From Escherichia coli (GTDB lineage Bacteria > Pseudomonadota > Gammaproteobacteria > Enterobacterales > Enterobacteriaceae), in the NCBI RefSeq assembly GCF_003334815.1, contig NZ_QOWO01000082.1: 3,437 bases of DNA; one strand, written 5' to 3'. This document shows positions 1-3,428 of this stretch, one piece after another. The notes under the pieces are model-generated. The model ran no database searches, had not been told where the DNA came from, and saw only the letters and a program-made list of their open reading frames with translations. Made by a program: the position numbers and the translations under genes. The first letter of the stretch is position 1. The number at the start of each line of letters is the position of its first letter.

Positions 1-73
1 CACATCCTGTCCCGTTTTTCAGGCCATTATAGCCTGTTATTTTTGTGCATCATAGTCTTATGCAGACGGCAGA

Positions 74-144: not shown

Positions 145-486
145 GTGCCAATGGCTTCTAAAAAATTTTACTCAGATGATGACATCCAGCTGGCAAAAGC
201 TGCCTTATCGGAATTGCCGGACCTCACCGCTCAACGGAAAACATTGCGTGATTTTCTTGATGCCATTCGTGATGACATCATTGTCCTGGTAAGGACAAAG
301 GGTTATACACTGGCAGATGTTCGTGACACGCTTAAAAATGCAGGGTATGAAGTAGGAGAGAAGGCACTTCGTGACATTATTCGGGAAGCAGAATCGAAAA
401 AACCATCCCGCCGTTCTTCCTCTAAAACAGCACCTAAAAAGACAGATTCAGGCAGGAAAGATGGCATCGATATGAACAACAATTGA
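145..486 (+). CDS. Hypothetical small protein (112-113 aa) with Lys/Arg/Ser/Thr-rich C-terminal tail; possibly DNA-binding, function not recognised
   Basis: Open frame 145..486 ending at TGA 484-486. The GTG at 145 is only ~4 nt from GGAGA (136-140), so ATG 151 (spacing ~10 nt) is the more likely start. The tail KKPSRRSSSKTAPKKTDSGRK resembles tails of small nucleic-acid-binding proteins. No family confidently recognised. Confidence 0.6.
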   Translation: MPMASKKFYSDDDIQLAKAALSELPDLTAQRKTLRDFLDAIRDDIIVLVRTKGYTLADVRDTLKNAGYEVGEKALRDIIREAESKKPSRRSSSKTAPKKTDSGRKDGIDMNNN

Positions 487-503
487 TGTGACAATGTCAC
501 ATC
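485..503. promoter_or_regulatory. Perfect 19-bp palindrome GATGTGACA-A-TGTCACATC overlapping the stop codon of the 113-aa gene
   Basis: 9+1+9 inverted repeat verified base by base (485 pairs with 503 through 493 with 495). Typical of a dimeric DNA-binding-protein site or an RNA hairpin at the end of the mRNA. Confidence 0.4.
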
Positions 504-2262: not shown

Positions 2263-2283
2263 AGCCTGGCAGAATGCCAGGCT
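2263..2283. other. Hairpin (8-bp stem AGCCTGGC / GCCAGGCT, 5-nt loop) between the convergent HTH gene and the orphan small ORF
   Basis: Perfect inverted repeat overlapping the stop codon (TAG, 2284..2282) of the - strand small ORF. No U-tract, so it may be a transcript-stabilising stem or weak terminator. Confidence 0.3.
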
Positions 2284-2488
2284 ACTGCTCATCAGGAAAC
2301 AGCTTTTTCAGTTCTTCACCGGAAAGTCCCGTGACCTCCTGAATCCGTTCCGGCGGCCAGCCTATATCCCGCAGCCGGCAGGCTATTTCCCGCGCCACTT
2401 CAAGAGCCCCTTGTTTAAAACCTTGTTTAAAACCTTCTTTAAAACCCTCGTCGAAACCTTTCTGTATAAGACGTTCTGCAATCGTCAT
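2282..2488 (-). CDS. Orphan small protein (68 aa) paralogous to the C-terminal tail of Rpn nucleases (RpnS-like), with tetrapeptide repeats GFDE-GFKE-GFKQ-GFKQ
   Basis: Its first residues MTIAERL are identical to the internal segment MTIAERL of the upstream Rpn protein. The remainder follows the same pattern (KG...ALEvAreIA...g..pEqIqe.TGLS.EELKK). Nucleotide similarity around the ATG: 2470-2488 vs 2681-2699 is 17/19 identical. The SD is weak (GGAG ~13 nt upstream) and an intrinsic terminator lies just upstream, so expression is uncertain. Confidence 0.55.
   Translation of the reverse strand: MTIAERLIQKGFDEGFKEGFKQGFKQGALEVAREIACRLRDIGWPPERIQEVTGLSGEELKKLFPDEQ
2411..2458. repeat. In-frame 12-bp tandem repeat, 4 units (TTGTTTAAAACC x2, TTCTTTAAAACC, CTCGTCGAAACC), encoding the GFK(Q/E)/GFDE tetrapeptide repeats
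   Basis: Two identical adjacent 12-mers, a third with one mismatch and a fourth diverged, all in codon register on the - strand. A substrate for slipped-strand copy-number change without frameshift. Confidence 0.85.
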
Positions 2489-2549: not shown

Positions 2550-2699
2550 TCAGTGAATGACTTTTTTCAGTTCAGCTTCGGAAAGTCCGGTGGCCTGCTT
2601 AATCTGCTCAGGTGTCATCCCCATTTTCTGAAGCTGACGCGCAATGGCAAGGGCTTTTTCAAGCGCACCTTTCTGCTCAAGACGTTCTGCGATTGTCAT
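2550..2699 (-). CDS. Putative intragenic small protein (49 aa, RpnS-like) translated from an internal in-frame ATG of the Rpn gene
   Basis: Internal ATG at 2699..2697 in the rpn frame, preceded by GAGGAT (complement of 2706-2711) with 7-nt spacing. Product would be MTIAERLEQKGALEKALAIARQLQKMGMTPEQIKQATGLSEAELKKVIH. Consistent with reported intragenic antitoxins of Rpn nucleases (from memory). Confidence 0.45.
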   Translation of the reverse strand: MTIAERLEQKGALEKALAIARQLQKMGMTPEQIKQATGLSEAELKKVIH

Positions 2700-3428
2700 C
2701 AGTTTATCCTCATGCTGCGGCAGGCGCTCGGCCAGCGCCCGCATAAATTCCGGTGATACAGAGTCCCCTGCGTTAACGATGTAATGAATCAGAACACGCA
2801 CCTGCTCGTCTGAAATTTCCACCATGACCTGCGGGAGTTTGTCCAGCAGCTCCATCATGTCACGATGGCGGATATGCTTCATCAGCAGCGTCAGTGCGGC
2901 CATCCGGCGATGGTTCATGATTTCATTGTCATCAACGACAGTGATATCAACCAGCGGAAACGGCTTTGTGTATATTTTAGCCGCAAGTGACGGATTCTCA
3001 AAACAGTCCAGCCAGTTCATGCTGTACGGATACGGGCTGCGCTCACCATGATAGAACAGCACCGGAATCACCAGTGGCAACGTTTTGTGCTGCTCCAGAT
3101 GTCTCTGCATCGCCGCCACACTGTAACGTAACATGCGGAAAGGCATGTACAGATTTTCGGTGCTCTGGTGCTCGATGAGCGTATAAACATAGCCATCTTC
3201 ACCCCCGGTGGTTTTCACGCTCCAGAGGATATCGCTGGCGTACTGATGCAGGTCCGGCTCAACAAAGGTGGCGGGTTCCAGCTTCAGCGTGGACAGGTCG
3301 CACAACTGCCGGTACTCCGCCGGAAGATGCAGTTCCAGAAAATCTCTGGCGACGTCGGGATTCGCCAGGAACGACCGGAACGCGGCATCATGCGGCGTGG
3401 GCGTTGTGGTGTTTTTCTTCTTACTCAC
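2550..3428 (-). CDS. Rpn family recombination-promoting nuclease / YhgA-like putative transposase (PD-(D/E)xK nuclease), 292 aa
   Basis: N-terminus TPHDAAFRSFLANPDVARDFLELHLP and the core DILWSVKT...YVYTLIEHQS match the YhgA/Rpn family (Pfam Transposase_31-like) as I recall it. The C-terminal tail ...AERLEQKG...TGLSEAELKK is the typical Rpn tail. GTG start at 3428..3426 with GGAGG (complement of 3433-3437) 4 nt upstream. Gene is complete, but its promoter lies outside the window. Confidence 0.9.
   Translation of the reverse strand: MSKKKNTTTPTPHDAAFRSFLANPDVARDFLELHLPAEYRQLCDLSTLKLEPATFVEPDLHQYASDILWSVKTTGGEDGYVYTLIEHQSTENLYMPFRMLRYSVAAMQRHLEQHKTLPLVIPVLFYHGERSPYPYSMNWLDCFENPSLAAKIYTKPFPLVDITVVDDNEIMNHRRMAALTLLMKHIRHRDMMELLDKLPQVMVEISDEQVRVLIHYIVNAGDSVSPEFMRALAERLPQHEDKLMTIAERLEQKGALEKALAIARQLQKMGMTPEQIKQATGLSEAELKKVIH
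2706..2711 (-). promoter_or_regulatory. Internal Shine-Dalgarno (GAGGAT) inside the Rpn coding sequence, serving the internal ATG at 2699
   Basis: - strand reads GAGGATAAACTG-ATG; AGGA lies 7-8 nt upstream of the ATG, which is near-optimal spacing. Confidence 0.4.

Follow-up and report, generated by a model that had tools for sequence, protein, structure and literature searches.

A conserved matS consensus site beside oriT in IncI1 and related conjugative plasmids, a probable target of host MatP

The window analyzed here, i.e. the whole stretch of 3,437 nts of Escherichia coli DNA (contig NZ_QOWO01000082.1), is 99.9% identical to plasmids of the IncI1 group (R64/ColIb-P9-type); about 2,000 plasmids, with hosts in Escherichia, Salmonella, Shigella, and Klebsiella, match it. 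On NZ_CP070070 it begins 84 bp from the nikA start codon, with the oriT inverted repeats immediately upstream of it, beside nikA (locus L001, 7935-8012). Positions 1-10 (+ strand) hold the IncI1 oriT nick region, CACATCCTG/T (the slash marks the nick), which was located from the upstream oriT repeats and from the motif YATCCTG/Y; both this motif and the nick position are those of the R64/RP4 oriT. Further right, ardA, psiA, psiB, and ssb lie on the - strand, and therefore, given also the position of the nick, it is the + strand that is transferred. The window forms the oriT-proximal beginning of the leading region, and its 3.4 kb are the first to reach the recipient.

The first gene, encoding a small basic protein named MobC (yggA in R64, a label found in LC567069), occupies 151-486 on the + strand. 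Its RefSeq start is ATG151, giving 111 aa, versus the 113 aa of the open reading frame that begins at GTG145. No family was returned for the 111-aa protein by Pfam and NCBIfam searches, no relatives by a PDB sequence search, and no match below E = 0.2 by Foldseek against PDB using an AlphaFold model (pLDDT 73); the Foldseek output included a weak, non-significant likeness to the StbA DNA-binding domain of R388 (7pc1, prob 0.66). The order nikB-nikA/oriT/mobC is retained in MOBP/MPF_I plasmids. Convergent with mobC is a gene for a DUF4942 protein (ygfB in R64; 572-1420, - strand), and the two share a bidirectional intrinsic terminator at 529-569, which consists of an A-run, the stem GCCCCGG/CCAGGGC (538-559), and then TTTTCTGTTT, and which also appears in RNA and DNA folds.

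Several other elements were observed in the window. An inverted repeat at 75-93, GGCAGGGC-GCA-GCCCTGCC, lies at the -35 region of the mobC promoter and resembles the oriT repeat across nic, GTCGGGGC-GAA-GCCCTGAC (L001, 7937-7955); a relaxosome protein may have a second binding site here, by which expression of mobC would be coupled to oriT. The short repeat TGATGATAAAAT at 107-118 and 1953-1964 lies at the -10 regions of the mobC promoter and of the promoter of an 83-aa helix-turn-helix (HTH) protein gene (2000-2251), and another, GATTATGATGAT, is found at 1948-1959, where it adjoins the HTH -10 region, and at 513-524, a short way downstream of the palindrome described below. Upstream of the DUF4942 gene, a GC-rich non-coding stretch (1470-1800, + strand) is about 83% identical to an element upstream of ssb (L004, 11140-11480) and folds as single-stranded DNA into a single long hairpin (-103 kcal/mol, z = -8.2). 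It is a class-1 ssi/Frpo-type single-strand promoter, a type already known for ColIb-P9 and pESBL (PMC12672017), and would drive ygfB from the incoming T-strand. The right end of the window (2282-2488 and 2550-3428, - strand) carries a full-length gene for an Rpn (RpnA-like) recombination-promoting nuclease followed by a 68-aa ORF, which matches only the Rpn C-terminal domain (RpnC/YadD-like) and within which a 12-bp tandem repeat (2397-2469) encodes (K/E)GF repeats.

At the end of mobC, positions 485-503 read GATGTGACA-A-TGTCACATC, which confirms the perfect 19-bp palindrome (9-1-9) described in the initial annotation; it is not extendable, since T484 and G504 are non-complementary. The TGA stop, which had been assigned as a whole to the left arm, occupies 484-486, and only its GA belongs to the palindrome. 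In shuffles of the window, 0.01 occurrences of the 19-mer with at most three mismatches are expected, and simple arithmetic (3437 x 6 x 4^-9) gives about 0.08 perfect palindromes with arms of 9 or more bases and a loop no longer than 5 per 3.4-kb window; on the whole 112-kb plasmid, there are 28 palindromes of this kind versus 2.4 in Markov shuffles. The palindrome is improbable by chance, yet it is one of a class that is common on this plasmid, and conservation across lineages is stronger evidence for its being real than any of these estimates.

The inner 13 bp, GTGACAATGTCAC (488-500), begin one base after the mobC stop codon and fit exactly the consensus of matS, GTGACRNYGTCAC, as given in PMC6907758 (Table 2) and PMC3603311. 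Through matS, the E. coli protein MatP organizes the terminus (Ter) macrodomain of the chromosome. The same 13-mer is found inside the matS oligonucleotide TGCCGTGACAATGTCACAGTG of the MukBEF-MatP cryo-EM study (PMC8669397). When the complete plasmid was scanned, exactly one further perfect consensus matS was revealed, GTGACAGTGTCAC, at NZ_CP070070 56590 (L004, 11691-11703), in non-coding DNA upstream of the ssb single-strand promoter, 10.7 kb from the first site and 11.2 kb from the nick. IncB/O and IncK2/Z plasmids likewise carry the two sites. From base composition, 0.025 sites are expected in 112 kb where two were found (P = 3e-4), and in the relatives 0.011 are expected per 40-kb segment, again with two found. 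The sites are more frequent than composition predicts and are conserved in IncI1, I-gamma, B/O, and K2/Z plasmids, as is typical of the matS class. The site at mobC lies on a plasmid, 479 nt from the oriT nic, and not in a Ter macrodomain around dif; this is a new context, by which the definition of the binding site is unaffected.

The palindrome was compared with many known motifs, so that some multiple testing applies to the matS match. Among the other consensuses compared (Fur 9-1-9, TetO, SlmA, KdgR, parS, CRP, and LexA), none fits the palindrome, and matS alone does. The CRP consensus has the spacing TGTGA-N6-TCACA and the sequence here gives TGTGA-N5-TCACA, so the earlier exclusion of CRP by spacing is borne out, as is that of LexA, whose consensus does not fit. 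No MatP homologue was detected on the plasmid by tblastn (best E = 0.17) with a MatP sequence that had been verified against PDB 4D8J. The hosts, Escherichia, Salmonella, Shigella, and Klebsiella, are all Enterobacterales, an order across which MatP/matS has been reported. We therefore consider it probable (roughly 65%) that 488-500 is a matS conserved on these plasmids, with the MatP of the host as its reader. Of the three options offered in the initial annotation, a binding site for a dimeric regulator fits best and stands in kind, the core being the matS consensus and the putative site of a MatP dimer; the likely binder, however, is neither the adjacent 113-aa protein, which had been named there as a possibility, nor the HTH protein.

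Conservation was examined within and beyond IncI1. In all seven IncI1/I-gamma sequences compared, positions 488-500 are invariant, whereas 503 (C/T) and 504 (G/A) vary. IncI1 backbones are 96-99% identical, and therefore conservation within IncI1 says little, a point that also leaves room for the view that the palindrome has no function and is a chance or hitch-hiking sequence in a highly conserved backbone. Divergent orthologues were then retrieved via the MobC protein, which is 72-74% identical in IncB/O (p1108-emrB), IncK2/Z (pEC21Z048-80K), and related contigs. In IncB/O and IncK2/Z, the 45-nt flanks on each side are 18-33% identical to the window, which is the random level, and the core is GTGACATTGTCAC, identical at 12 of 13 positions and different only at the centre (the N position of the consensus); it also starts one base past the mobC stop. 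A conserved core amid flanks of random-level similarity, together with a second consensus copy (P about 3e-4 for two), makes a sequence devoid of function very unlikely, even though one lineage carries a mismatch. In this lineage (L015; MobC 85% identical, a protein cluster of 129 sequences), the site is GTGATATTGTCAC, in which an invariant position of the consensus is broken, and therefore the site is not indispensable. The initial annotation had named absence of the palindrome from orthologous loci as the observation that would speak against a function; the core was found in the I-complex orthologues examined, in L015 with its mismatch, and this retention favours function.

The outer GAT/ATC arms are specific to IncI1, and what is conserved has precisely the length of matS, 13 bp. 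Sequence comparison thus suggests that the functional unit is probably the inner 13 bp at 488-500 and not the full 19-bp palindrome, whose outer 3 bp on each side are unconserved beyond IncI1. That the palindrome reaches 19 bp in IncI1 is probably incidental; chance would give this in 1 of 64 cases, and position 503 is variable.

The same comparison bears on the idea of a recombination or nick site, in which a hairpin of the transferred strand, followed by a nick-like sequence 479 nt from nic, would serve as a secondary relaxase, termination, or priming site. A hairpin does form in the ssDNA fold, it is the + strand that is transferred, and 9 of 10 positions agree between the right flank CACATCGTGT and the nick region CACATCCTGT, so that the order of inverted repeat and nick-like sequence resembles oriT. 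However, the mismatch falls inside the ATCCTG core (the flank has ATCGTG), positions 503 and 504 of this flank vary within IncI1 (CACATT-, CACATCA-), and the flank is missing in IncB/O/K/Z, where only the 13-bp core is kept and the hairpin on the transferred strand would be only 5-6 bp. The palindrome does not belong to the IncI1/IncP oriT nick sites, given its variable ATCGTG flank and the true nick region at window 1-10. The nick-site option is unsupported by these data, and we regard it as very improbable.

The surroundings of the site differ among lineages. The DUF4942 gene is replaced or displaced in some of them while matS stays. In IncB/O/K/Z, about 0.8 kb of unrelated DNA separates matS from the DUF4942 gene; within this extra segment are small ORFs, an ORF of 105 aa, and a hairpin rich in AT (L016-L019, 3360-4190; L022, 20359-21540). 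A chimeric IncX1 plasmid of Escherichia fergusonii (NZ_CP099336) was observed to have acquired the IncI1 nikB-nikA-oriT-mobC module (L011, 1589-1640), and its homology to IncI1 stops about 25 nt past matS (window position of about 525), which indicates that matS travels with the mobilization module.

The constant position of the site also invites the explanation that it is an operator for a dimeric plasmid protein (MobC/YggA or the 83-aa HTH protein), with a role in regulation or in the architecture of the oriT region; MobC/YggA would in this case be an accessory factor of the relaxosome or of the oriT vicinity. The site abuts the mobC stop in every I-complex lineage, and perfect palindromes are typical of operators. 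YggA is small, basic, and helical and has the weak, non-significant likeness to the StbA domain noted above, and StbA of R388 binds next to oriT. Against this, plasmids of IncL/M, Serratia, Erwinia, and Enterobacter share the conserved N-terminal domain of MobC yet lack the site: no matS was found near MobC homologues with at most 63% identity (Enterobacter 63%, Erwinia, Serratia, and IncL/M pOXA-48), and all that was seen in pOXA-48 is a TGTCAC-N7-GTGACA repeat in everted orientation, 100 nt downstream. The mobC promoter is without a copy or half-site array of the palindrome, and the second copy lies 10.7 kb off, at a place unrelated to mobC or the HTH gene. An exact matS match at two sites would moreover have to be a coincidence (about 1 in 2000 per half-site). 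MobC/YggA as a relative of MatP was considered too and discarded, as the two proteins gave no alignment.

As for the HTH protein, its gene has a distinct repeated operator of its own, AAAGTGAA-N5-TTCACTTT (GTGAA-N5-TTCAC), and the palindrome, with its GTGACA-N1-TGTCAC layout, does not belong to this class. The corresponding inverted repeats, AAAGTGAA-N5-TTCACTTTTT, are located before the HTH gene at 1896-1920 and 1965-1989, 67 bp apart, the latter immediately past the likely HTH -10 element (TAAAAT, 1959-1964), and are probably autoregulatory operators. Taken together, a plasmid-encoded reader of the palindrome is unlikely.

A further explanation is that the palindrome acts as RNA, forming a stem-loop in the mobC mRNA just past the stop codon that protects the 3' end from exonucleases or modulates translation termination; in a variant of this explanation, it is a weak back-up terminator for - strand transcripts. 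The hairpin is part of the minimum-energy RNA fold of 440-580 (segment z = -3.7), the position one base past the stop is fixed across lineages, and the - strand version was flagged as terminator-like. In addition, both arm substitutions (503 C>T and the C>T of L015) retain G-U pairs in the + strand stem, which counts against the matS reading as well. On the other side, no compensatory double changes were seen among the lineages, the sequence and not just the pairing is conserved, and outside IncI1 the stem has only 5-6 bp with a loop of 1-3 nt. In none of the lineages is the stem followed by a U-tract on the + strand, the T-rich tail on the - strand is not conserved, and no + strand gene ends at the second matS copy. 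The palindrome was rejected as an intrinsic terminator, the + strand stem being followed by GTGTTCTGAG, with a weak T-rich tail on the - strand only. The strong bidirectional terminator at 529-569 lies 30 nt downstream, and therefore the palindrome is not needed to terminate mobC or the DUF4942 gene. Comparison of the entire window with Rfam, under a permissive E-value cut-off, gave nothing on the palindrome and only weak matches to the neighbouring terminator (E >= 0.13). The 3' stabilizing stem suggested in the initial annotation is accordingly not favoured, and we rate a role as RNA as quite unlikely. Overall, the plasmid-regulator, RNA-stem, and nick-like explanations are weaker than the matS reading.

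It is worth comparing the site with systems already described. In E. coli, the Ter macrodomain is reported to hold 23-28 chromosomal matS bound by MatP (Mercier 2008, as cited in PMC6907758). The plasmid site resembles these in its GTGACRNYGTCAC class, its palindromic 6-1-6 layout, its occurrence in Enterobacterales with MatP/MukBEF, its over-representation, and its evolutionary retention. Unlike them, it is on a conjugative plasmid and not in Ter around dif, and its place is in the leading region, beside oriT and up against a stop codon; the plasmid has two sites 10.7 kb apart, compared with one per about 35 kb over 800 kb of chromosome. On the chromosome, matS is described as confined to Ter and as significantly avoided by prophages (0 in 500; PMC3603311). 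Two matS on a plasmid in E. coli are also what was used in the engineered test plasmids described in PMC11564523; according to that description, the sites were inserted by the experimenters, whereas those found here are natural, family-conserved, and known from sequence. Another parallel is Vibrio cholerae ChrII, a replicon of plasmid ancestry with acquired MatP sites through which it is positioned (PMC11564523). ChrII, for which 14 putative sites had been derived from the E. coli matS motif before the ChIP-seq mapping of PMC11564523 itself, is an essential chromid of megaplasmid origin, with many matS forming a true Ter domain around dif2 (PMC11564523), whereas the I-complex plasmids are mobile and have two matS in the transfer leading region. 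As in the StbA/stbDR system of IncW R388, which sets plasmid position in the cell, a protein-binding element would lie beside oriT, and the oriT-adjacent gene may here too encode a small helical DNA-binding-like protein, as the weak fold match of the modelled structure suggests. In R388, a plasmid protein reads direct repeats of 9 bp; here the element is a palindrome with a proposed host reader, and there is no significant similarity between the two. Finally, like terminators and 3' stems, the palindrome is a GC-containing inverted repeat directly past a stop codon; unlike them, it has no coding-strand U-tract, a stem of 5-6 bp in sister lineages, a conserved sequence, and a true terminator nearby.

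The observation from which a mechanism can be proposed is that I-complex plasmids (IncI1, I-gamma, B/O, and K/Z) keep two matS in the leading region. MatP, which as a dimer recognizes matS in duplex DNA, joins Ter to the divisome via ZapB-ZapA-FtsZ and displaces MukBEF (PMC6907758, PMC8669397), and two matS sites are reported to suffice for taking a test plasmid to mid-cell via MatP-ZapB-ZapA-FtsZ (PMC11564523). Since I-complex plasmids carry exactly this number, occupancy of both sites is proposed: once the plasmid is double-stranded, a dimer of host MatP would bind at each matS. MatP at the two sites would link the plasmid to the ZapB-ZapA-FtsZ division apparatus and to the Ter region at mid-cell, and may also unload MukBEF locally. 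The plasmid, or at least oriT and the leading region, would then behave as terminus DNA late in the cell cycle. In vivo occupancy by MatP and its consequence (positioning and/or MukBEF exclusion) are what we infer from sequence. That large enterobacterial conjugative plasmids (those of the I-complex with two sites in the leading region, F-like ones with one inside traI) carry matS deliberately, co-opting host MatP for Ter/divisome tethering and/or MukBEF eviction from incoming or resident plasmid DNA, is put forward as a tentative proposal, which we consider possible but on balance doubtful. Under it, matS would be a DNA-encoded 'pass', situated amid the genes for anti-defence and establishment with which entry into the recipient begins.

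Several further points count against the matS reading. MatP binding accounts neither for the mismatch in L015 nor for the fixed one-base distance from the mobC stop, which hints at some connection with the expression of mobC. No matS was found near the more distant MobC loci of hosts that have MatP, in vivo studies question matS-matS bridging (PMC6907758), and what a plasmid already equipped with ParM and ParA systems would gain is not obvious. The second matS lies within a region that is conserved throughout, and therefore its conservation adds little.

We also found matS on F-like plasmids. F and R100 have one perfect matS each, at the same position inside traI (NC_002483 96778-96790, i.e. 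L024 46829-46841, for F; 82571 in L027 for R100), both matching the consensus. An F-like plasmid of Klebsiella keeps the site too, as does pSLT, whose version (GTGACAGCGTCAC) still fits the consensus; in a Serratia plasmid it differs by one mismatch. Wobble/synonymous positions beside the site vary in all F-like plasmids compared. These five sequences form an independent parallel and hint at a wider phenomenon.

In a literature search of incomplete coverage, no report of a natural plasmid-borne matS or of a link between MatP and IncI plasmids was found. The matS class itself is known; its conserved natural occurrence on plasmids is unusual and is surprising for the fields of plasmid biology and chromosome organization. 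It is also a cis-acting site currently missed by plasmid annotators. Judging from the two conserved sites, conjugative resistance plasmids of the I-complex probably borrow the chromosome-positioning system of their host. If this is true, mobile plasmids plug into the terminus-organizing and MukBEF-unloading machinery of the host, through a pair of sites in IncI1/B/O/K/Z, a main antibiotic-resistance plasmid family with about 2,000 sequenced examples, and through the traI site in F-like plasmids. It would also provide a testable link between MatP/ZapB/MukBEF and plasmid inheritance, establishment, or transfer, and would partly account for the narrow range of enterobacterial hosts in which these plasmids occur.
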